In this document: positions 4,466 to 32,000 of the stretch, piece after piece
Position numbering within the stretch: the stretch's first letter is position 1
How the letters are laid out: every line of letters starts with the position of its first letter
NCBI RefSeq assembly: GCF_003044035.1
Contig: NZ_NVQC01000022.1
Span: forward strand, 300,001-332,000
Source of the DNA: Candidatus Methylomirabilis limnetica
Lineage (GTDB): Bacteria; Methylomirabilota; Methylomirabilia; Methylomirabilales; Methylomirabilaceae
Direction: 5' to 3'
Length of the DNA: 32,000 nucleotides
Made by a program: the position numbers and the translations under genes
The notes under the pieces: model-generated
Told to the model about the DNA's origin: nothing
Seen by the model: only the letters and a program-made list of their open reading frames with translations
Database searches by the model: none

Positions 4466-5416
4466 TCAACGGCTTTCTCTTGCGCGATGGGTCACCTCCG
4501 CCTGATAAAACGCTACGGTCTGGGAGATTCCCTCCTCAAGGAAAATGGTTGGCTCCCAGCCTAACTCTGCCTTGGCTAACGAGGCGTCCAGGCAGATCCT
4601 GTCGATCTCTCCGGGTCGTTTCGATGCGGCAATCGGCTCTACCGTAGCCCCCGCCGCCCTACGTACCAACTCAAAGATCTGTCGGTCGCTTACCTCGCGC
4701 CCCAGGCCCACATTATAGCTCCGGCCTGAGGCCCGCTTCTCTGTCATTGCCAAGAGGTTCGCCGCGACGATGTCATCGACGTAGACGTAATCCCGGGTCT
4801 TGGTGCCGTCGCCGAAAATCGTCGGGCACTCGCCGGCGAGCATCTGCCGGCTAAAAATCGCTACGACGCCGGCCTCTCCAGCAGGATTCTGTCGGGGACC
4901 ATAGACATTGGCATACCGCAAAATCGTGTAATCCAGCCCGAACCCATCGAAGAGGCGCAGGTACTGCTCTACGGCGTACTTACTCACCCCGTAGACGGAC
5001 ACCGGATGGATCGGATGGAGCTCGTCAACAGGCAGCCGCTGGGGTTCGCCATAGACGGCTCCTCCGGACGAGATGTTAATGAACTTCCTCACCTTGTGGG
5101 TAAGGGAGAACTCGAGCAGATTGAGCGAGCCAACGATATTCACGGACGCATCAAACGATGGCTCACTCATCGACCGGCGCAGGTCGGCCTGGGCCGCGTG
5201 ATGATTGACCACTTCAGGGCGCTCAGTGCGAAACACCTCCTCCAGTGCCTGACGGTCACGGATGTCCACCCGGTAAAAGCGCGCCGAAGGATGGACCTGC
5301 TCTCGTTTCCCCATCGAGAGGTCATCTACCACAGCGACCTCATGTCCCCCTTTTACCAAAGCATCTACAATATGCGACCCGATAAATCCGGCCCCACCCG
5401 TGACGAGAATTTTCAC
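4466..5416 (-). CDS. NAD-dependent epimerase/dehydratase (extended SDR, UDP-hexose 4-epimerase-like)
   Basis: KILVTGGAGFIGSH Rossmann motif and YGVSKYAVE (YxxxK). The likely start is the GTG at 5416, preceded by AAGGGGAG. The ORF-track N-terminal extension reads through a family C repeat. Confidence 0.88.
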   Translation of the reverse strand: MKILVTGGAGFIGSHIVDALVKGGHEVAVVDDLSMGKREQVHPSARFYRVDIRDRQALEEVFRTERPEVVNHHAAQADLRRSMSEPSFDASVNIVGSLNLLEFSLTHKVRKFINISSGGAVYGEPQRLPVDELHPIHPVSVYGVSKYAVEQYLRLFDGFGLDYTILRYANVYGPRQNPAGEAGVVAIFSRQMLAGECPTIFGDGTKTRDYVYVDDIVAANLLAMTEKRASGRSYNVGLGREVSDRQIFELVRRAAGATVEPIAASKRPGEIDRICLDASLAKAELGWEPTIFLEEGISQTVAFYQAEVTHRARESR

Positions 5417-5441
5417 GTGTCTCCCCTTCTCGGAAGCTCGA

Positions 5442-5499
5442 GGTAGGGGCAGGGCTTGCCCTGCCCAATATCCGGGGCGCAGCAAGCAGCGCCCCTACC
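5442..5499. repeat. Family C double-hairpin repeat (second copy)
   Basis: GGTAGGGGCAGGGCttGCCCTGCCCaatatccGGGGCGCagcaagcaGCGCCCCTACC. Same architecture as 4345-4399. Confidence 0.85.
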
Positions 5500-5509
5500 C
5501 CAGACGTGT

Positions 5510-6913
5510 TCACATAGCATTTTTGTGGATGAAGCCCTTCCACAAGCTTAGGCAGAGGATTCTCAGATCGAAGAACAATGACCAGTTCTCAATATAGAAC
5601 AGGTCACACTCGATTCGTTTCTCGACTGAGGTATCACCCCTCCACCCGTTGACCTGAGCCCACCCAGTGAGGCCGGCTTTCACCTTATGTCGGAGCATAT
5701 AGCGAGGGATCTGCTTTCGAAACTCCTCTATAAAGACCGGCCGCTCCGGTCGGGGACCAACGAGGCTCATCTCCCCTTTCAGCACATTGAACAATTGCGG
5801 CAGCTCATCCAGCGAAGTTCTTCGGAGCAATGCGCCGATCACCGTCCGACGCCCATCACCGCGTGCGGCCCAGACCGGACCGGTGTCATCTTCTGCATCG
5901 GTCTGCATCGATCGGAACTTCAGCATCTGGAAGGTCCTACCGTCCAGGCCCATCCGTTCCTGGCGGTAGAGAACCGGACCAGGAGAGGTCAGCTTGATGA
6001 TAGCCGCGACAAGAAGCAGTAACGGCCCGGTGATCAGGAGGGCCACGCTCGCCAGTACGATATCTATCATCCTCTTGCCGACTAGGCTCCAGCCAAAAGT
6101 GGGCGAGTCCTGCAGGCTGATCAGGGGAAGACCGTCGAAATCCTCCACCCCTCCCCGTAAGGTCATGTACTGGTAGAGGTCCGGAACAACGTTGATGTCC
6201 GCGATCCCATCCTCCAGGCTTCTAAGGATTCCTTCCATCCGTCCGTAGGTCTCCAGCGGAATGGCGATAAAAATCCTATCGATCGACAGCTCGCCCACTA
6301 TCTCCCCTGCCTGCTCGTAGGTGCCAAGGGCCGTCAACCCCGCCACCTGTTCCCCCACCATCCTCGGATCGCCGACCAGCAACCCCATGATGTGAAGACC
6401 CAACTCCGGGCGCGCATGGATCCTCTCGATGACCTTCCGCGCCAACGCCCCCTCTCCGACAATCAGGATATGGCGGAGGTTATACCCCCTGCGCCTCATC
6501 AAACGAAGCCCCTCGCGGAAAACGCTCCTGATCAAGCTGACTGACAGGATGCTGAAGATCCAGAAGTAGAGAATCACCAACCGCGAGACCTCGAACGGCT
6601 TGAGAAAGAAGGTCGCCGCGACGAGAATCAAGACCGCGACGGTACAGGCCTTGGCGATATCCCTGACTTCGGCAAGGCGCGATGAGATTCGCCTCGGGCG
6701 ATACAACCCAAAAGCCTTAAAGGCGACACCCCAGACGATAACGATGAGGCCCAGCAGCAAGAGGTACGGGCGAGCGTCAGGGATACCACGGTAGACGGGA
6801 ACCAGGCCTAAATAAAAGCGGAAATAGTACGTACCGAGCCAACTGGCGCTGATCGCCAGCAGGTCTGCGAAAAGCATGAGACTTTCGAGGAACTGACTGT
6901 GGCGCTTCAGCAT
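5510..6913 (-). CDS. Polyprenyl-phosphate hexose-1-phosphate transferase (WbaP/CpsE-type initiating sugar transferase)
   Basis: N-terminal TM helices and a central Rossmann-like region. C-terminal bacterial sugar transferase domain: KRMIDIVLASVALLITGPLLL...LKFRSM...DELPQLFNVLKGEMSLVGPRP. The start is taken at the ATG at 6913 (MLKRHSQF), overlapping the upstream stop by 7 nt; the ORF-track start at 6940 is also possible. Confidence 0.9.
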   Translation of the reverse strand: MLKRHSQFLESLMLFADLLAISASWLGTYYFRFYLGLVPVYRGIPDARPYLLLLGLIVIVWGVAFKAFGLYRPRRISSRLAEVRDIAKACTVAVLILVAATFFLKPFEVSRLVILYFWIFSILSVSLIRSVFREGLRLMRRRGYNLRHILIVGEGALARKVIERIHARPELGLHIMGLLVGDPRMVGEQVAGLTALGTYEQAGEIVGELSIDRIFIAIPLETYGRMEGILRSLEDGIADINVVPDLYQYMTLRGGVEDFDGLPLISLQDSPTFGWSLVGKRMIDIVLASVALLITGPLLLLVAAIIKLTSPGPVLYRQERMGLDGRTFQMLKFRSMQTDAEDDTGPVWAARGDGRRTVIGALLRRTSLDELPQLFNVLKGEMSLVGPRPERPVFIEEFRKQIPRYMLRHKVKAGLTGWAQVNGWRGDTSVEKRIECDLFYIENWSLFFDLRILCLSLWKGFIHKNAM

Positions 6914-8130
6914 GATCGACGGCGTCCCCCACGCTTCCATTCCTCGAAGCGTTCAGCAATATACGTCGCGATCCGTTTTTCGAAAATCGAGCGATCGAAT
7001 GTAAGGGCATGCGTGCGAAGCGCCTCTGGATCGAACCGATCGGCTGATCGCTCGAACAGGTCGATAGCCTGGATCACCGCCTCAATGGTCTGCTCGTAGA
7101 AGAAAATGCCGGTGGGGGCCTCGGGTTTCGGGTTTCGGGTTTCGGGTTTCGGGTTCGCAGACGTTCTTGACTCCAAACTCGAAACTCGAAACTCGAAACT
7201 GTTTAACGGGACAACGGTTTCCGTCACCCCACCCTTGCCATACGCGATTACCGGCCGGCCGCTGGCCATGGCCTCAACCGGCAGGATACCAAAATCCTCC
7301 TCACCTGGAAATATCAGCGCGCGACAGCGGCTCAGAAGGTCGGCAACCTCGCTGTCCGGACGCCACCCCAGAAATTCGATGGTGGGACCGGCCATGCGCC
7401 GCAGTCGTTGGCTCTCCTGACCTTCACCCACGATCACCAGGTGTCGTCGCAGATGGTTGAAAGCCTCAATGGCGAGATCGATCCGCTTATACGGAGCCAT
7501 GGCTCCGGCCACCAGGTAGTAGTCGTCCGTCCGCTCGGCGATATGAAAGCGCGCGGTCTCGACCGGAGGATAGATCACCTCAGCCTCACGCCTGTAATGG
7601 CGTCGGATCCGATCCGCTACATGATGGGAGATGGCGACGAAGTGATCGATCCTGATGTTGACCGCGATATCCCACCGTCGCAAGCGTCCGGCGATAGCGC
7701 GTAACATAAGTCTAGACACCGGACCCATTCGGCCAGAGCCCACATAGGCATCCTGCATGTCCCAGATGTAGCGCATGGGGGTGTACACATACGCAATGTG
7801 AAGAGCCTCTGGCGGGGGTCTGACCCCCTTGGCCACGCAGTGGCTGCTCGACAGGATCAGATCGTACCCATCGAGTTTGAGCTGCTCGATGGCCCACGGA
7901 AATAGGGGCAGATAGTAGCGATAGCGGCTGGCGGCAAACGGCAACGCCTGGATAGCCGACGTCCGGATTCGCCGTTCTTCGATGGTCTTCGATGCGCTTC
8001 CCTTCACATGCAGCAGGGTGAAAATATCCGCTCCCGGAAAGAGCTCACAGAGCGCCTCCAGGCATCGCTCTCCCCCCCGCATCCCGGTCAGCCAATCGTG
8101 AATCAGCGCAACCTTTGCCTCATCCAACAT
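6907..8130 (-). CDS. Glycosyltransferase family 4, carrying an in-frame repeat-element insertion
   Basis: N-terminus VALIHDWLTGMRGGERCLE and the EX7E region EEDFGILPVEAMASGRPVIAYGKGGVTETV. An atypical segment of about 27-30 aa (PLNSFEFRVSSLESRTSANPKPETRNPKPEAP), encoded by the heptamer element at 7121-7201, precedes TGIFFYEQ. Confidence 0.9.
   Translation of the reverse strand: MLDEAKVALIHDWLTGMRGGERCLEALCELFPGADIFTLLHVKGSASKTIEERRIRTSAIQALPFAASRYRYYLPLFPWAIEQLKLDGYDLILSSSHCVAKGVRPPPEALHIAYVYTPMRYIWDMQDAYVGSGRMGPVSRLMLRAIAGRLRRWDIAVNIRIDHFVAISHHVADRIRRHYRREAEVIYPPVETARFHIAERTDDYYLVAGAMAPYKRIDLAIEAFNHLRRHLVIVGEGQESQRLRRMAGPTIEFLGWRPDSEVADLLSRCRALIFPGEEDFGILPVEAMASGRPVIAYGKGGVTETVVPLNSFEFRVSSLESRTSANPKPETRNPKPEAPTGIFFYEQTIEAVIQAIDLFERSADRFDPEALRTHALTFDRSIFEKRIATYIAERFEEWKRGGRRRSC
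7121..7201. repeat. Heptamer inverted-repeat element inside the GT4 CDS
   Basis: Counted directly: 5 x TCGGGTT (7121-7155), 19-nt spacer, about 3.7 x AAACTCG (7175-7200). The reverse complement of AAACTCG is CGAGTTT, versus CGGGTTT in the other arm, which gives one G:T position per unit. The 81-nt total is 27 codons with no stop. Confidence 0.92.
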
Positions 8131-8168: not shown

Positions 8169-9161
8169 CTAGACGAACCACCGGCCCATCTGTTCCGTAG
8201 AGGCGCGGCAGCGCTTCATAATAATCCCACGCTTGTAGCGAGCCCTGGGCAAGTATTTCTTCAGGTCCAATACGGCCTTTAAGAGAGCAGGTTCTATGAG
8301 GGCGACGTAGACCATCGCGCGTACCCCCAACCACAGGATCGGTAAGCAATCCCGTCGCAGTAGAGCTGGGAGTTCATTTTTGATCATCATTAAGGAATGA
8401 TTCTTGAAGGAGTGATACTTCCGGAGCCACGGGACGCGCCGGCGATCATCTCTACGCTTCCACCCCCGCAGGTGATAGGCGATTGCTGCGGGGTTATACC
8501 GCGAGCCCCAACCAAGCAATTGGGCCCGCCAGCAGGTGTCTACGTCCTCCTTGTAGGCGAAAAAATCCTCGTCGAAATACTCCCCATCAATCTGAATATC
8601 ATCAAGCATTGACCGTCGGTAGAGGACCGCCGCCCCGCAGATACTGAAGACCTCCTCGGGCTTGTCATACTGGCCCACATCAAGCTCCCCGTGTCCTCTG
8701 TCGATGACTCGTCGACTTCGAAAGATCAGGTGGCCAGTACTGTCAAGTATCCGTGGTGCGTCACCACTCGGCCCGCTGTCGGTTTGGGAGTCGCCCAGGA
8801 GGAGCTTGCCGCCCACAGAACCCACGCCAGGCGCCGAGACCATGACCCCCACCAATTCCTCCAGGTGCCGAGGTCCCAATACAACATCAGGATTTAGGAG
8901 CATGACGTGATCATACCCATCCGCTTCCCGAACGATACGGTTCGCTCCACCGCTGTATCCAAGATTGTCCTGCATCGCCAGGATCTGCACCTCGGGATAG
9001 GCGTTGCCGATAGGTCCAATCTCATCGGCGCGACTGTGGTTATCGAGTACAATCACCCGATCGGCCCGCATGGTCTGGCGCTTTATGCTATCCAGGCAGT
9101 CCGGCAGATGGCGGTAGTCACCGTAATTGATAATCCCAACCGCCACGCGCGGATCTGTCAC
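8169..9161 (-). CDS. Glycosyltransferase family 2 (rhamnosyltransferase-like)
   Basis: VAVGIINYGDYRHLPDCLDSIKRQT, VLDNHS, and FFAYKEDVDTCWRAQLLGW (the ED.D..R block typical of this GT2 subgroup). The ATG at 9161 overlaps the rfbD stop by 4 nt. Confidence 0.9.
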   Translation of the reverse strand: MTDPRVAVGIINYGDYRHLPDCLDSIKRQTMRADRVIVLDNHSRADEIGPIGNAYPEVQILAMQDNLGYSGGANRIVREADGYDHVMLLNPDVVLGPRHLEELVGVMVSAPGVGSVGGKLLLGDSQTDSGPSGDAPRILDSTGHLIFRSRRVIDRGHGELDVGQYDKPEEVFSICGAAVLYRRSMLDDIQIDGEYFDEDFFAYKEDVDTCWRAQLLGWGSRYNPAAIAYHLRGWKRRDDRRRVPWLRKYHSFKNHSLMMIKNELPALLRRDCLPILWLGVRAMVYVALIEPALLKAVLDLKKYLPRARYKRGIIMKRCRASTEQMGRWFV

Positions 9162-13586: not shown

Positions 13587-14918
13587 TTATGTGCCCGGTT
13601 GAGCAGACGGCCGGCATCGCCGCACTATAAGGTAGGTTACGAACAGTTGCACGGGAAGGAACAGGACCATAGCAATCCCAACTATGACTAATATCGCAAC
13701 TGGGTCGCGTATAAGGGCGCTCACCAATTGATGAGTATCCAAAGTTATCGAGCTCAGAATCACCTTATCGTCGGAGCTGATCCGGATTGCCTCGCTTCCA
13801 CTTGGACCCATCACGCGAAATCCTTGTGCGCCGCTCGACAACGTGAGCGTACCTGATTCATCAGCATAAATCTGCCCACCTTTGCCGCCATTAAAGACTA
13901 AGCCCTGCCCTTCTCGCTTCGTGTGGAGACGCATGGCACCGTGTTCGAATACCGGCTGGTCAAAGTCAATGCCGATCCCAGCCTCCTCGAACAAACCGTA
14001 AATAACCCGGCCGTCCTTAGCAAGGCTGTTATACACCACCATGGCAGCCTTCCACTGGCCCTTGCGGTTGGCGGAATCAGGCGAATCGGAATCCTCACTA
14101 CGAATCTCGATCGCCTGAGTATTCTGCTTTCCGAAACCAACCACCTGAACACCCGTCTTGGCCAATACGCCGGCATTCTCGCGCCCCCAGCCTTTCCAAT
14201 CCTTGCCGGCGTTTAGAACGTCTATCTCGAGACCGACAAGTTGGGCATCAAAATCGTTGGCATTGAAATGTGGCCGGTCCTTCGGCACGTACTCCTGCCA
14301 GTATAGGGGCCAAGACCGCGCCGAAAGGAACCCGCCCCACACTTTGCTGCCAGGCACAAAAGCGCCCGAGTCTCCCCAGATCGCCACGCCGTTAACATTG
14401 GGATTAAAGTTCCACACCTCACTCATGAGGTTCTGGTAGTGATTGTGCCTGCTATGATATTCGGTGGGCGAGCTAAACTTCGTTGAGCTATATTCCTTCG
14501 GGTTAGACTTCCAATCGGTAACCCTGGCGTCAGGAGTGATGACGTCAGAAATTGTGATATTCTGCCGCAGGCCCGTGCCAAGATGAGCGTACTGGCCCCA
14601 GATGCCTTCCAGCCGTGGATGGTGACCACGCACCAGGTTAATACCACCTCCATACCTGAAATCGAGAGTCCGGACATGCTGAGGAATTCTGACAGGAAAA
14701 GGGCCACGCGGAGCATCCTGCCCGATGACGATCAGCGGATTATTGCTCAGTTCGGCCTTGGAAATAATCGAGGCTGCCTTATCCCAGTTCTCTTTAGTTA
14801 GCTGAAAAGTTGTAAACCCGGGGAGCCCTGACCGTTGTAGTGCTTCTTGGGCCCAAGCAACCTTGGAAAAGATCGCGCATTGTGCCAACAAAAGGCCGAG
14901 ATAGAGCAATGTCTTCAT
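13587..14918 (-). CDS. Exported protein of unknown function with a C-terminal membrane anchor
   Basis: The ATG at 14918 gives the Sec signal MKTLLYLGLLLAQCAIFSKVAWA|QEA. The C-terminus is hydrophobic and followed by a basic patch (VAILVIVGIAMVLFLPVQLFVTYLIVRRCR). No domain recognised by eye. The ORF-track 5' extension reads through an IS remnant. Confidence 0.7.
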   Translation of the reverse strand: MKTLLYLGLLLAQCAIFSKVAWAQEALQRSGLPGFTTFQLTKENWDKAASIISKAELSNNPLIVIGQDAPRGPFPVRIPQHVRTLDFRYGGGINLVRGHHPRLEGIWGQYAHLGTGLRQNITISDVITPDARVTDWKSNPKEYSSTKFSSPTEYHSRHNHYQNLMSEVWNFNPNVNGVAIWGDSGAFVPGSKVWGGFLSARSWPLYWQEYVPKDRPHFNANDFDAQLVGLEIDVLNAGKDWKGWGRENAGVLAKTGVQVVGFGKQNTQAIEIRSEDSDSPDSANRKGQWKAAMVVYNSLAKDGRVIYGLFEEAGIGIDFDQPVFEHGAMRLHTKREGQGLVFNGGKGGQIYADESGTLTLSSGAQGFRVMGPSGSEAIRISSDDKVILSSITLDTHQLVSALIRDPVAILVIVGIAMVLFLPVQLFVTYLIVRRCRPSAQPGT

Positions 14919-14964
14919 GTGTGCCCTCACGCCACACCTCCGAATGCTTGTCTTACCCTTCATA

Positions 14965-23012: not shown

Positions 23013-23040
23013 CAAACCCCTCCGCACCCCACACGTCAAA

Positions 23041-23080
23041 TCCCCCCGTGCCCCCCTTTACAAAAGGGGGGGTGGGGGGA
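23041..23080. repeat. Family E C-run/G-run hairpin
   Basis: TCCCCCCGTGCCCCCC tttacaaaa GGGGGGGTGGGGGGA, lying between the GNAT stop and the PIG-L start. Confidence 0.75.
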
Positions 23081-23114
23081 TTTCGCACCTCGCGCTCTGC
23101 GACTCGCACGGTCT

Positions 23115-29352: not shown

Positions 29353-29436
29353 TCACACCTCCTCGCCGCTGCCTCGTGACGCCGACGCTTACACAATTCG
29401 GATAAATTATGACTCTTCCGGAACTCGCGTGGATTG

Positions 29437-29560
29437 CTTGTCCTTCCCTCTCCCTCTTGGAAGGAGAGATACACCCGTATCTGACATTTTACACGCTTGC
29501 GGTTGCCTTGTCCTTCCCTCTCCCTCTTGGAGGGGGAGGGTTGGGGTGAGGGTGGGACAG
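29437..29560. repeat. Family B repeats on the left flank of DUF559
   Basis: CTTGTCCTTCCCTCTCCCTCTTGGA occurs twice in direct orientation (29437-29461 and 29507-29531, 70-nt period). The second copy extends to the hairpin CCCTCTCCCTcttggAGGGGGAGGG plus TTGGGGTGAGGGTGGGACAG. Confidence 0.85.
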
Positions 29561-29878
29561 GGCGTTCTCAATCGCCTGCAACACCGGCTCAAGATTACCT
29601 AACACTTCGTGATCCCAGAACCGGAGTACCCGATAGCCTCGGTGAATGAGGAATTCCGTACGTCGCTCATCGGCTGGGATTTGAGTGCCATGGTGGCCAC
29701 CATCGACCTCCACCACGAGCCAGTGTGCCGGACAACAGAAATCTACAATGTACGAACCGATGGGATGCTCACGACGAAACTTGGCGCGATGAATCTGTCG
29801 GTCGCGCAACTGCCACCACAGCACCCGTTCACAGTCGGTCTGCCTCCTTCGGAGTCCTCTGGCGAGCCCACGGTTCAT
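29489..29878 (-). CDS. DUF559 / Vsr-like endonuclease-fold protein
   Basis: CERVLWWQLRDRQIHRAKFRREHPIGSYIVDFCCPAHWLVVEVDGGHH...DERRTEFLIHRGYRVLRFW is the DUF559 pattern. The C-terminal tail HPHPNPPPPRGRGKDKATASV is read-through into the family B repeat. Confidence 0.85.
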   Translation of the reverse strand: MNRGLARGLRRRQTDCERVLWWQLRDRQIHRAKFRREHPIGSYIVDFCCPAHWLVVEVDGGHHGTQIPADERRTEFLIHRGYRVLRFWDHEVLGNLEPVLQAIENALSHPHPNPPPPRGRGKDKATASV

Positions 29879-29880
29879 GA

Positions 29881-29961
29881 CCCCCTCACCCTGGCCCTCT
29901 CCCCCGTGTGGGGAGAGGGGACTTTTTTGCTGCTCTTCGCACCCACTGGGGGGAGAGGGGG
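29881..29961. repeat. Family B repeats on the right flank of DUF559
   Basis: CCCCCTCACCCTGGCCCTCTCCCCCgtgtGGGGAGAGGGGAC (29881-29922; perfect 10-bp stem 29896-29905/29910-29919), followed by TTTTTT. A partial second copy, CCCACTGGGGGGAGAGGGGGC, lies at 29942-29961. Confidence 0.85.
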
Positions 29962-30099
29962 CTTTTAGGCCTTTGAACCATGGGTGTTACCCACACAATT
30001 TCCGTAAGAACTTAAATTGTAGCGGGTATGACCTGGCGCGTCAAGTGTTCCGGCGGCCCCTAGAATAGCGATAGACTGCGCAATCATTCGATTCTTCCC

Positions 30100-30176
30100 G
30101 TCATTGCGAGCGACTCACGGGAGCGTGGCAATCTCAGTGCAATAATGCGTGATTGCTTCACTTCGTTCGCAATGAC
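30100..30176. repeat. Family A palindromic repeat, gene-less copy
   Basis: Forward arm GTCATTGCGAGCGACTCACGGGAGCGTGGCAATCTC (30100-30135; 33/36 identical to 3171-3206 by my count), 15-nt spacer, short inverted arm GATTGCTTCACTTCGTTCGCAATGAC (30151-30176). Confidence 0.9.
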
Positions 30177-30236
30177 AACTTTCTATCGCTGTGCTTGGGG
30201 CGGCCATCGGCGACGCGCCACCGGATGAGTTCCGGG

Positions 30237-30264
30237 TTGACAGGTTTCGCGGACTCGCTATACT
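30237..30264 (+). promoter_or_regulatory. Sigma70-like promoter for the lipoprotein gene
   Basis: TTGACA (30237-30242), 16-nt spacer, TATACT (30259-30264). It lies about 45 nt upstream of the AAGGAG SD (30311-30316) and the ATG at 30322. Confidence 0.5.
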
Positions 30265-30321
30265 CACGCGGAGGATGAGACTGCGACAACCGTTTACCAT
30301 ACAGACATGAAAGGAGCGAAC

Positions 30322-30897
30322 ATGAGAAAACATATCTGGAGCGCCATCGGGGTGGCCATGTTGCTGTCGGCCTGCGCAACCGTGTCACAGACCGGCCGGA
30401 CGGAATCGGATCTGCAGGCCACACTCGCGCGGCTGCAGGCACACCGTGAGCAGGGCCGGACCGGCTCGGTCTGGGGCTTCTTGTACCTGCGTGAGCCAGG
30501 AGTGCCGACACCGCTGAAAGATCGGGCGGTCACGCTGCTACCGCTGACTCCGGGGTTGGAGACCACGATTCACCGGGTGCGACAGACCTACCGGGACGGC
30601 GGTTATGCCATCCTGCCGTTTCAGACGCTTGACCAGCTCAAGCAGGCGCTGGACAGCTACCGCACGCAACTGAAGGACGCGGGGCGCGGTGACCTGATCC
30701 GGCAAACGCGTACCGACACTGCAGACGATCCCAAGTTTGAATTCAGCGCGGTCCCGGAAGGGCGGTGGCTACTACTGGCCGAGCTGCCCTCTCCACCGTC
30801 GCTGGCGGTCTGGATCGTCCCGGTCACCGTCACCGCCGGGGCTGCCACCAAGCAATCGCTGAACGACCAGACAGTTATCGAAGGCCTGATTCAATAG
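30322..30897 (+). CDS. Lipoprotein of unknown function
   Basis: MRKHIWSAIGVAMLLSAC has a lipobox (LLSAC). The ATG at 30322 follows AAGGAG by 5 nt. The ORF-track start at 30307 is less likely. Confidence 0.75.
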   Translation: MRKHIWSAIGVAMLLSACATVSQTGRTESDLQATLARLQAHREQGRTGSVWGFLYLREPGVPTPLKDRAVTLLPLTPGLETTIHRVRQTYRDGGYAILPFQTLDQLKQALDSYRTQLKDAGRGDLIRQTRTDTADDPKFEFSAVPEGRWLLLAELPSPPSLAVWIVPVTVTAGAATKQSLNDQTVIEGLIQ

Positions 30898-30912
30898 GGG
30901 GGCAACGCGGTC

Positions 30913-31042
30913 GTCATTGCGAGCCGTAGGCGAAGCAATCCCGTGGCGACACCGCCAAGAACAGTCAGATTGCTTCGGCTTTGCCTCGCACAATGACAGA
31001 AGGGGGGTCATTGCGAGCGACCAACGCGAGCGCGGCAATCTC
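30913..31042. repeat. Family A repeats: a complete short-arm copy plus the long forward arm abutting the GIY-YIG gene
   Basis: GTCATTGCGAGCCGTAGGCGAAGCAATC (30913-30940), 27-nt spacer, GATTGCTTCGGCTTTGCCTCGCACAATGAC (30968-30997). After 9 nt comes GTCATTGCGAGCGACCAACGCGAGCGCGGCAATCTC (31007-31042; 35/36 identical to 3171-3206). Confidence 0.9.
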
Positions 31043-31328
31043 ACAGCCCTTCAAATAAATCATCCCGCGTCGGATTCATTCCATTGATCAACTGAAGCTT
31101 CCTCGCTCGTGAACCCGCTTTGAGCTGCTTCTCCCGAACTATCGCAGCCTCGATATCGTCATACACCTCGTAGTACACCAGCTCGGTGAGATTATACCGC
31201 TTGGTAAAGCCCTCCACCAGTTTAGCGCGATGCTCGTAGACGCGTTTGATCACGTCACTTGTGACGCCGACATACAGCGTGGTGTGCGCCTTAATTGTCA
31301 TAATGTAGATGTAACCGGGCCTTTGCAT
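31041..31328 (-). CDS. Small GIY-YIG nuclease-family protein (COG2827 / YhbQ-like URI domain)
   Basis: GYIYIMTIKAHTTLYVGVTSDVIKRVYEHRAKLVEGFTKRYNLTELVYYEVYDDIEAAIVREKQLK carries the GIY...YVG motif, the conserved R and E, and the family-typical length of 95 aa. Confidence 0.9.
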   Translation of the reverse strand: MQRPGYIYIMTIKAHTTLYVGVTSDVIKRVYEHRAKLVEGFTKRYNLTELVYYEVYDDIEAAIVREKQLKAGSRARKLQLINGMNPTRDDLFEGL

Positions 31329-31356
31329 CTCCGCTCATTTACCTATCAAATACGGT

Positions 31357-31371
31357 GAGATTGCTTCGCCT
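31357..31371. repeat. Truncated inverted arm of family A
   Basis: GAGATTGCTTCGCCT matches the start of inverted arms (compare 3223-3234 and the reverse complement of 30913-30940). It diverges from about 31372. Confidence 0.7.
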
Positions 31372-31387
31372 GTGCCTACTCAGAAAC

Positions 31388-32000
31388 TTAAGCCGGTATT
31401 GGGAGTGGTGTTAAGCAATAGCCCAACTGAGCGGCTTGACGTTGTAGTGATTTGGTATGTCGGTCATGTTGTTGTTGGTCATACGCCTTGGCAGAGGCAT
31501 GTCGATAAGGCTGACGATGCGTCAAGAGATGATAAATAATGCGCGCCAATTTATGAGCGGTAGCGACAATAGCTTGTGCGCCGCCCAAACGTGCCCGCAT
31601 CCGCCGATAGAATGCGCCCAGGGCGCTCTGACTGCGACTGAGCGATTGAGCCGCCAGGCGCAAAGCCTGGCCCGCCCGATTGTGAACCTTCAGGGTGCGA
31701 CTGCGAATCACCTTGCCGCCGGTAATATCATTGTGCGGTGCCAGGCCCAGCCAGGAACAGAAATGCTTTTCCGTTCGCCACTTGCTCATGTCTGTCCCGA
31801 TTTCGGACAGCACACCTTGAACCGTGCTGTCATCCAGTCCATCCACCACCGTCAGGTCAACGCCCGTCAACCGATACAGGTGGCCTCGCACATCAAAGGT
31901 CGGCGCGTTCTTGCTGTGCGAGTTCACTTTGGGGTCAGGTGGCAAGGGCGGCAAGTCGTCATCAAACCGGGGTGTGAGGGCGCTGTATTGTTGTTCGAGT
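31388..32000 (-). CDS. IS110-family recombinase/transposase, C-terminal part (5' end beyond the window)
   Basis: The frame is open to the window edge; hand check gives LEQQYSALTPRFDDDLPPLPPDPK... upstream of the ORF-track start. Transposase_20-type block LTGVDLTVVDGLDDSTVQGVLSEIGTDMSKWRTEKHFCSWLGLAPHNDITGGKV...ALGAFYRRMRARLGGAQAIVATAHKLARIIYHLL. Confidence 0.88.
   Translation of the reverse strand, partial: LEQQYSALTPRFDDDLPPLPPDPKVNSHSKNAPTFDVRGHLYRLTGVDLTVVDGLDDSTVQGVLSEIGTDMSKWRTEKHFCSWLGLAPHNDITGGKVIRSRTLKVHNRAGQALRLAAQSLSRSQSALGAFYRRMRARLGGAQAIVATAHKLARIIYHLLTHRQPYRHASAKAYDQQQHDRHTKSLQRQAAQLGYCLTPLPIPA

Follow-up and report, generated by a model that had tools for sequence, protein, structure and literature searches.

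What ties a small nuclease gene to the hairpin repeats that enclose it? The question is raised by an open reading frame (ORF) of 129 amino acids (aa) at 29489-29878 on the minus strand of a 32-kb stretch of the Candidatus Methylomirabilis limnetica genome (contig NZ_NVQC01000022.1, positions 300,001 to 332,000). This stretch is here called the window, and coordinates given below are window positions unless another locus is named. The ORF encodes a DUF559 (PF04480), or Vsr-like, PD-(D/E)XK nuclease, which a preliminary description of the region had placed between inverted copies of a hairpin repeat. To our knowledge, DUF559, a very large nuclease family that includes E. coli YcjD and the protein of Protein Data Bank (PDB) entry 3HRL, has no known role. 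The best explanation of the evidence, to which we give a probability of about 0.55, is that nuclease and repeat form a partnership of RAYT/REPIN type, in which the gene occupies a master doublet of the repeat that belongs to it.

The DUF559 gene and its two triplex-motif modules

The protein matches PF04480 over residues 5-107 (E=3e-35; 120.8 bits against a gathering cut-off of 20.6), its closest solved structure is 3HRL (E=3e-22), and residues D46, E57, D59 and H63 are invariant or nearly so among homologues. The gene is intact, and dN/dS values of 0.22-0.42 against sister copies indicate that it is under purifying selection.

Two mutually inverted modules flank the gene, both with their boxes pointing toward it. 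The upstream module (29880-29921, minus strand; plus strand CCCCCTCACCCTGGCCCTCTCCCCCGTGTGGGGAGAGGGGAC) consists, in gene orientation, of a hairpin, CCCCTCTCCCC-ACAC-GGGGGAGAGGG, a CCA spacer and a box, GGGTGAGGGGG, that ends 2 nucleotides (nt) before the ATG. The downstream module (29507-29560, minus strand; reverse complement CCCACCCTCACCCCAACCCTCCCCCTCCAAGAGGGAGAGGGAAGGAC) holds the counterpart box, or box' (CCCTCACCC, 29544-29552), and a hairpin, CCCTCCCCCTC-CAAG-AGGGAGAGGG, at 29516-29538; the tail region reads CCCTCACCCC-AA-CCCTCCCCCTC-CAAG-AGGGAGAGGG in gene orientation. Each arm is computed to fold into its own local hairpin. The last 22 codons of the ORF are the downstream module, read through to the first stop, and the resulting C-terminal tail (aa 108-129, HPHPNPPPPRGRGKDKATASV; 29492-29557, minus strand) lies beyond the DUF559 domain, whose Pfam match ends at aa 107.

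One account of this layout would be that, by chance, two low-complexity stretches rich in G/C lie on either side of a short ORF, and the local inverted pair returned by a repeat search (29516-29552 and 29883-29919, 37 nt) is only 73% complementary. The composite pattern CCCTCACCCNNNCCCTCTCCC, allowed up to three mismatches, nevertheless has two sites in the 32 kb, namely the two modules, against 0.09 expected from 100 shuffles of the window, none of which contained two matches. This result and the recurrence of the bracket at other loci refute chance, which we regard as having practically no standing, and they bear out the placement of the gene between inverted modules. Every window occurrence of the 9-mers CCCTCTCCC, GGGAGAGGG, GGGTGAGGG and CCCTCACCC falls within 29446-29959, and the 9-mer search found no same-family copy elsewhere in the window.

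BoxC/PIT/TM repeats have figured in the E. coli literature since the 1990s, are conserved across phyla and are tied to local instability; we know of no function, origin or enzyme for them. The flanking repeat, which the preliminary description had presented as a new "family B", is by its sequence and plan this published BoxC/PIT/TM_ECO intrastrand triplex motif, as a literature search with the motif strings revealed (Holder et al. 2015, PMC4666352). The window motif, CCCTCTCCCC-ACAC-GGGGGAGAGGG-CCA-GGGTGAGGGGG, shares the plan and nearly the sequence of TM_ECO type B, CCCTCTCCCTGTGGGAGAGGGCCGGGGTGAGGGC (PMC4666352, Table 1), and the triplex-motif plan of a pyrimidine arm, loop, purine arm, short loop and G-rich third block fits the window module (CCCTCTCCC..GGGAGAGGG..GGGTGAGGG). 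BoxC is an older name for TM_ECO, and Hoyne et al. 2000 (cited in PMC4666352) used the name PIT element. According to the same paper, E. coli MG1655 has 23 TM_ECO copies, five inverted pairs among them, the triplex motif occurs in more than 260 genomes, the TM triplex forms in vitro, and TM loci are unusually rearranged between strains, while TM neighbours revealed no functional gene class, no link to mobile elements and no enzyme (PMC4666352). The terms endonuclease, DUF, Vsr and ycjD are all absent from its text.

Judged by its spacing, the upstream box is in the Shine-Dalgarno position. The GAGG core lies 5 nt from the ATG in the window, and the distance from box end to first in-frame start has a median of 8 nt over 39 loci (interquartile range 3.5-20), which fits a Shine-Dalgarno role of the box and agrees with the earlier statement that the repeat itself is the only such sequence, in a module 2 nt upstream of the ATG. 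The upstream hairpin with its T-run scores as terminator-like on the opposite strand, by consensus match only. A 119-aa ORF on the plus strand (29609-29968), antisense to the nuclease gene and crossing the upstream module, probably arises as an artefact, the repeat being G/C-rich and poor in stops.

Both the box-to-start spacing and the terminator-like hairpin favour the main rival explanation, passive cargo with a portable expression cassette. Here the modules would be only a ribosome-binding site (the box) and insulating or stabilising hairpins, arms and gene would be inherited as a block, and the nuclease would not act on the repeat. We consider this unlikely, though ahead of the other rivals. 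In E. coli, PIT elements showed neither promoter nor terminator activity (PMC4666352), and several regularities among the other loci, given below, are left without a reason by passive cargo.

Bracketing, DNA geometry and repeat families across loci

The partnership reading draws support from a comparison of 80 relative loci, a best-80 choice with DNA taken from one-genome-per-species contigs (L-numbers label compared loci and contigs; L001 is a sister genome whose shared genes are 94-98% identical to those of the window). The loci come from Nitrospira, Binatia, Chloroflexota, Rickettsiales, Elusimicrobiota, Dadabacteria, Gemmatales and alpha- to delta-proteobacteria, Enterobacter among them, and 79 were scored for the bracket. 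The score aligns the upstream region to the reverse complement of the same locus's downstream region, with cross-locus pairs and far windows 3 kb away as controls and the control 95th percentile as cut-off. By this measure 71 of the 79 DUF559 loci, spread over many phyla, are bracketed. Inverted-repeat scores have medians of 52 within loci, 26 across loci and 19 in far controls, so the two arms of a locus are more alike than they are to the arms of other loci, and at L060, L012 and L020 the loops too are reverse complements between arms. Throughout many phyla, genes of this DUF559 clade are normally found in such a bracket. The genes are thus enriched beside the modules, and the general principle put forward in the preliminary description stands for DUF559; its supposed parallel at a GIY-YIG gene comes to only two examples.

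Inflation of the tblastn ranking by the tails was considered as a source of the bracket and rejected, as 18 of the 19 loci whose match ends by residue 110 still exceed the control threshold. The flanks, 899 kb in all, contain few additional same-family copies (42 sites, or 0.47 per 10 kb), and in the 32-kb window copies were seen only at the unit. The brackets are therefore not generic repetitive extragenic palindromic (REP) sequences filling every intergenic gap, a possibility that the preliminary description had raised against itself. One Dehalococcoidia locus (L015) contributes 14 of the 42 sites, where triplex-motif modules and doublets are packed in dense alternating arrays close to the DUF559 gene (5302-5639, 6159-6485 and 8805-9053).

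The extra flank sites include singlets and doublets, the latter with the structure hairpin-box-spacer-box'-hairpin and spacers of 25-130 nt. Gene-less palindromes with a short spacer, suggested earlier as something to look for, thus exist. Rhodanobacter and Dyella doublets (L016, L018) still contain the leader that, in the unit with the gene, comes after the box.

Several observations indicate that the repeat is maintained as DNA. Nearly all of 120 protein homologues end in PHPxPLPxxGRG or PSPRPSPQRGEG, and many predicted homologue N-termini read SPSPLWGEGRVRG, which is the same DNA as the tails, translated. Relative to the ORF, box' occurs in all three reading frames (18/11/8), and a stop codon precedes it in 6 of 37 loci. 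In L087, whose shared unit is 93% identical to that of the window, a 1-nt deletion just before box' replaces the HPHPNP... tail by TLTPTLSLSEGEG, yet the DNA is conserved. The claim that the C-terminal tail is repeat read-through is upheld by the frame distribution and by this frameshift. As a side observation, paralogous non-DUF559 proteins of 311 and 337 aa at L071 end in ..VSVPPHP, encoded by the triplex motif (6213-6268 and 7287-7360); read-through tails are thus not limited to DUF559. Hairpin pairing is kept at 98% over 136 stems, and stem sequences differ between loci. A comparison of G:U with A:C mismatches within hairpins was uninformative (26 mismatches in 1360 pairs).

The box, 9-11 nt long beside a C-rich/G-rich hairpin, is further related to its hairpin by a mirror rule: it mirrors the hairpin purine arm under purine-motif rules, G to G and A to A or T. 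Of 121 modules, 67% conform perfectly, compared with 9% of controls in which arms were paired with boxes from modules with a different arm. Asymmetric variants follow the rule as well (GGGGGAGGG to GGGAGGGGG or GGGTGGGGG; GGGGGAAGG to GGATGGGGG; GGGAGGGGA to AGGGGAGGG), and these tell a mirror repeat apart from a direct one. By inspection, the window upstream module obeys the rule, as do two further variants described below, family C and that of a MITE (miniature inverted-repeat transposable element). Replication-based duplication yields direct or inverted repeats, not mirror repeats, and the three-way co-variation is therefore taken as a sign of selection, acting either on a triplex-like fold or on a protein by which such a fold is read. 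What is conserved is, on these comparisons, the geometry of the DNA, and neither the peptide nor mRNA pairing. The co-variation provides comparative evidence for a selected triplex-type geometry, independent of any triplex-based search.

The similarity of the arms within a locus could alternatively reflect autoregulation at the RNA level, with the 3' box' of the mRNA pairing with the 5' box, the Shine-Dalgarno sequence, and thereby stopping a toxic nuclease from being translated; on this view the arms would co-vary because of RNA pairing. Box and box' are complementary, and box' usually lies inside the ORF, as this explanation would have it. Arm-to-arm mismatches, however, comprise 98 sense-type and 135 antisense-type changes and 151 transversions, with no enrichment of G:U on the sense strand. 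For this reason long-range mRNA pairing of the arms was rejected as the main constraint. Each arm also folds into its own local hairpin, and the mirror rule is a feature of DNA triplexes, since purine-motif triplexes do not form in RNA (PMC4666352, introduction). RNA-level autoregulation is accordingly very improbable. Passive cargo likewise gives no reason for the mirror rule, nor for a 3' arm that tracks the 5' arm within each locus.

The partnership reading is further favoured by the distribution of repeat families over DUF559 clades. In clade 1, 111 of 120 proteins have family-B tails and none of 120 a family-C tail; in clade 2, family C supplies the tails of 106 of 120 proteins and family B that of 1 of 120, a clade-to-family pairing that appears close to exclusive. 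The window genome, in which a neighbouring protein is 100% identical to CLG94_08940 of Candidatus Methylomirabilis limnetica, has a second DUF559 paralogue, of clade 2, 7 kb away (L002, 2349-2768), and its bracket is of family C (hairpin CCCCCTTT..AAAGGGGG plus GGGGGATTT). Another pair of DUF559 paralogues, at L069, again has two different repeat families. A gene-less family-C copy, AAATCCCCCC-ACC-CCCCCCTTTT-GTA-AAAGGGGGG-CAC-GGGGGGATTT, lies at 23050-23095 of the window, where it fills the gap between an acetyltransferase and a PIG-L gene (23040-23113). A private repeat family for each clade, present also without a gene, is not explained by passive cargo. Bracket and clade pairing together suggest, from sequence comparison, that DUF559 is the missing partner enzyme of the triplex-motif repeat.

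The E. coli gene ycjD (DUF559, in the order sapF-ycjD-fabI) ends in a degenerate TM module, ..TCACCCTCACCCCAACCCTCTCCCTGAAAGGG.., and the inverted TM that follows it is the sequence of Holder's TM_ECO no. 9. The sapF-ycjD-fabI region is seen at L088 (960-1090), and some strains have an extra partial duplication of about 100 nt that covers the ycjD 3' end and the module (L089, 960-1200). The Enterobacter unit, compared with 5426 complete E. coli genomes, has 2-18 matches in every genome.

An ISL3-type cassette around the unit

The preliminary description was right to place the gene at the centre of a large palindrome, though its extent is larger than stated. In the window the symmetry runs on to a pair of terminal inverted repeats (TIRs), with target-site duplications outside them. 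The cassette 3' end in gene orientation is the TIR at 29412-29434 (plus strand), ACTCTTCCGGAACTCGCGTGGAT, which has three mismatches to GCTCTTCCGGAANTNGTGTGGGT (none expected by chance), and the 5' end is the TIR at 29989-30011 (minus strand), GTTCTTACGGAAATTGTGTGGGT, with two mismatches. The duplication copies are TAAATTAT at 29403-29410 and TAAATTGT at 30013-30020, both just beyond the TIRs; they match at seven of eight positions. Homology between copies extends beyond the repeats to the TIRs, GCTCTTCCGGAAnTnGTGTGGGT.

Two other insertion sites, L001 and L087, carry the shared unit at 93% identity (94-95% over the coding sequence), and the L001 protein is 89% identical to that of the window. 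The three independent insertions all show 8-bp AT-rich direct repeats, matching at 7/8 positions in the window, 8/8 in L001 (TTTATTGA and TTTATTGA) and 7/8 in L087 (GAAATAGG and AAAATAGG). In L001 the cassette lies between the acetyltransferase and PIG-L genes, another position in the same glycosylation operon, where the window (23040-23113) has no cassette; L087 provides a third insertion context. A Pfam scan of ORFs found no transposase gene inside the 602 bp, and DUF559 is the only ORF with Pfam support. On the evidence of the TIRs, the target duplications and the ISL3 elements with the same ends described next, 29411-30012 (602 bp, minus strand) is a non-autonomous ISL3-family transposable cassette (a MITE, or mobile insertion cassette) with DUF559 as its only gene.

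The TIRs were scanned for in metagenomes, with matches on at least 120 contigs, and a partner TIR is present in 36 of 80 loci of that scan. Two elements of 1307 and 1366 bp with the same TIRs (L101, L163) encode DDE_Tnp_ISL3 transposases (E about 1e-69). The commonest TIR-bounded form is a MITE of about 217 bp, and in the 34 MITE pairs that could be tested the 8-bp duplication is perfect 11 times and agrees at 7/8 positions a further 4 times. Its interior reads hairpin-box-centre-box'-hairpin in another sequence variant, with no gene (for example L097 601-818 and L160 2181-2398; L090-L169), and its modules are CCCCTCCTTTGTAAGGAGGGG-CGA-GGGGAGGTAGA ... TCTACCCCTCC-CTG-CCTCCCCTTACAAAGGGGAGG. No DUF559 clade cognate to this variant was identified. 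The remaining longer TIR-bounded elements are internally deleted transposases and one RHH+PIN pair, and none of the longer elements in the metagenomes was found to hold DUF559. The RHH+PIN case is a 1087-bp stretch running from an ISL3 TIR at L148, with a toxin-antitoxin-like pair (RHH_1 and PIN_3 in Pfam), although its partner TIR may belong to an adjoining element. A 298-bp TIR-bounded element at L124 has family-B arms (..GGGTGAGGGGGTC ... CTCTCACCCCCACCCTCTCCC..) around a 170-nt GC-rich centre that is not DUF559 and may be what is left of a decayed gene, or different cargo.

The window copy looks old, because its TIRs carry two to three mismatches and one arm is duplicated over 70 nt. This right-arm duplication (29437-29506, minus strand) includes a partial hairpin copy, 29437-29468 repeating 29507-29538, and is not seen in the alignment of L001 or L087. 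A partial extra copy of a hairpin arm also lies in the left-arm leader (29942-29966, minus strand), as a direct repeat of 29902-29926 and an inverted repeat. A promoter-like site, TTGACG-17-TACAAT, is found just outside the cassette and reads inward (30016-30044, minus strand; consensus match only).

The TIR and duplication shell is specific to the Methylomirabilis-type lineage, and L086 is without it. The idea that the arms are merely long MITE TIRs was rejected, as the bracket is present in 71 of 79 loci without an ISL3 TIR. In the Methylomirabilis lineage, the unit would in addition have become enclosed by ISL3 ends, with an ISL3 transposase mobilising it in trans. Passive cargo gains from this shell, which explains local mobility, and from the other cargo of elements with ISL3 TIRs, such as the RHH+PIN pair.

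The mobility of the gene also bears on a housekeeping role, in which DUF559 would repair T:G mismatches for which a solitary cytosine methyltransferase is responsible, the role proposed for VsrA of Caulobacter, and the repeats would be incidental REP-like neighbours. The protein belongs to a Vsr-like fold family, a Caulobacter DUF559 protein has been linked to cytosine methylation and methylation-dependent repair (PMC12907096), and some loci are vertically stable. Canonical vsr is coupled to an adjacent or overlapping cytosine-5 methyltransferase gene, whereas no such gene adjoins DUF559 in the window or at the sister loci. Since the gene lies within a transposable cassette found at different sites in sister strains, and a bracket frequency of 90% is not incidental, Vsr-type repair is improbable here.

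The immediate neighbours of the DUF559 gene are a GT2 glycosyltransferase gene and a gene without a Pfam match, and small mobile elements are clustered over 29400-32000, where the glycosylation operon ends. A 95-aa GIY-YIG gene (31041-31328, minus strand) has inverted 15-nt arms at 31030-31044 and 31355-31369. A 37-nt repeat of this unit, GTCATTGCGAGCGAC..GGCAATCTCA (31007-31043), recurs at 30100-30136, and a gene-less palindrome of the GIY-YIG-flanking family occupies 30052-30205. At L079 a GIY-YIG gene (14657-14923, reverse strand) is flanked by arrays of GTCGTTCCTGCGGAGGCAGGAAC hairpins. With this one further example, the bracket principle was not extended to GIY-YIG. A partial IS110-family transposase gene (Transposase_20; 31388-31954, minus strand) runs off the window end and is complete, at 452 aa, in L002 (7133-8491).

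Partner enzyme, passenger and known systems

The partnership reading can be put as a sequence of steps. The DUF559 gene would sit within the master doublet of its own repeat; its protein would recognise the folded, triplex-capable hairpin-plus-box form of the cognate repeat and nick or cut there; and host repair would then copy, homogenise or delete repeat copies. Repair at nicked repeats would explain the instability reported at E. coli TM sites. In an alternative form of the reading, a free-standing homing nuclease would be lodged in the spacer of a repeat doublet. A more tentative and distinctly less probable extension, for which we would not claim even odds, is that DUF559/Vsr-like nucleases are the long-missing cognate enzymes of BoxC/PIT/TM repeats in general. 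They would constitute a second RAYT/REP-like system, in which a hydrolytic PD-(D/E)XK nickase reads folded hairpin-plus-third-strand DNA and drives repeat spread, homogenisation and instability, including in E. coli K-12 through ycjD.

Several points weigh against a partner-enzyme role. An enzymatic link between DUF559 and the repeat has been demonstrated nowhere. ISL3 transposase acting in trans fully explains mobility in this lineage, so DUF559 may be passive cargo, and among the 80 loci no target duplications or defined outer ends were found past the hairpin edge outside the Methylomirabilis-type lineage. Several loci are orthologous across genera, for example in Rhodanobacter and Dyella, which indicates that the unit is often static. 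At 107 residues and lacking an additional DNA-binding domain, the core is small for a homing enzyme that acts sequence-specifically. In E. coli, ycjD is accompanied by a module on its 3' side alone, with none upstream. PIT elements showed no stable triplex in vivo, in addition to lacking promoter and terminator activity (PMC4666352), and the best-80 choice of loci may favour this DUF559 clade.

No paper linking DUF559 to the repeat was found in the searchable literature (subscription journals not covered), where a systematic partnership of DUF559 with the triplex motif appears to be undescribed. The physical pairing, conserved and clade-specific, offers a candidate partner for both the nuclease family and the BoxC/PIT/TM repeats, and it brings the question within reach of tests on ycjD in E. 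coli K-12. Annotation is affected too: PHPxPLPxGRG, PSPRPSPQRGEG and IPPGPPLKKGG tails, like the N-terminal extensions found in thousands of predicted proteins, come from repeat DNA that is read through.

Several known systems resemble parts of the window unit. Inverted pairs are common to it and to TM_ECO repeats, and local rearrangements reported for TM loci have a counterpart in the arm duplications that the window and L001 each carry. In contrast to published TM_ECO copies, the window motif brackets a DUF559 nuclease gene and sits within an ISL3 cassette. YcjD and N. gonorrhoeae NGO0050 (PDB 3HRL) belong to the same DUF559 family as the window protein, and we know of no function for either. 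As in the window unit, the ycjD C-terminus is TM-encoded and a second inverted TM is adjacent; unlike the window unit, the ycjD site is fixed in the chromosome.

The window cassette is like other ISL3 MITEs and mobile insertion cassettes in its TIR type, its 8-bp AT-rich duplication, its lack of a transposase and its several insertion sites, and the local element is thus an ordinary kind of ISL3 derivative. It differs from an ordinary MITE in its passenger, a nuclease gene already within its own palindromic repeat. The MITE of about 217 bp has the same TIRs and interior plan but a variant sequence and no gene.

I-Bth0305I is a Vsr-like (EDxHD) homing endonuclease (PMC3239194). It is encoded in an intron, and its defined target lies in the recA gene that lacks the intron. 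It and free-standing homing genes share the fold superfamily with the window protein, and the free-standing form shares its organisation as a small stand-alone gene. Vsr-like folds thus occur both in a homing endonuclease and in methylation-linked repair, and the fold alone is not decisive. Unlike I-Bth0305I, the window DUF559 has no intron and no known allelic empty site or cleavage site, and no allelic filled/empty pairs were found other than the ISL3-type insertions.

Another likeness is to the REP/RAYT system. There, a single-gene enzyme stands between inverted copies of its hairpin repeat, which is also dispersed as singlets and inverted doublets without the gene; different enzyme clades go with different repeat families, inheritance is often vertical, and the enzyme is an HUH Y1 (IS200/IS605-like) transposase. 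The DUF559 units share the gene placed between inverted repeat copies, the gene-less singlets and doublets, the clade-specific families and the often vertical inheritance. They differ in that the window enzyme is a hydrolytic Vsr-like PD-(D/E)XK nuclease (PF04480 only) and not HUH Y1, and in that the repeat has a mirror-symmetric third block. Because of this difference in enzyme, the DUF559 unit would work like a REP/RAYT system without being a member of it.

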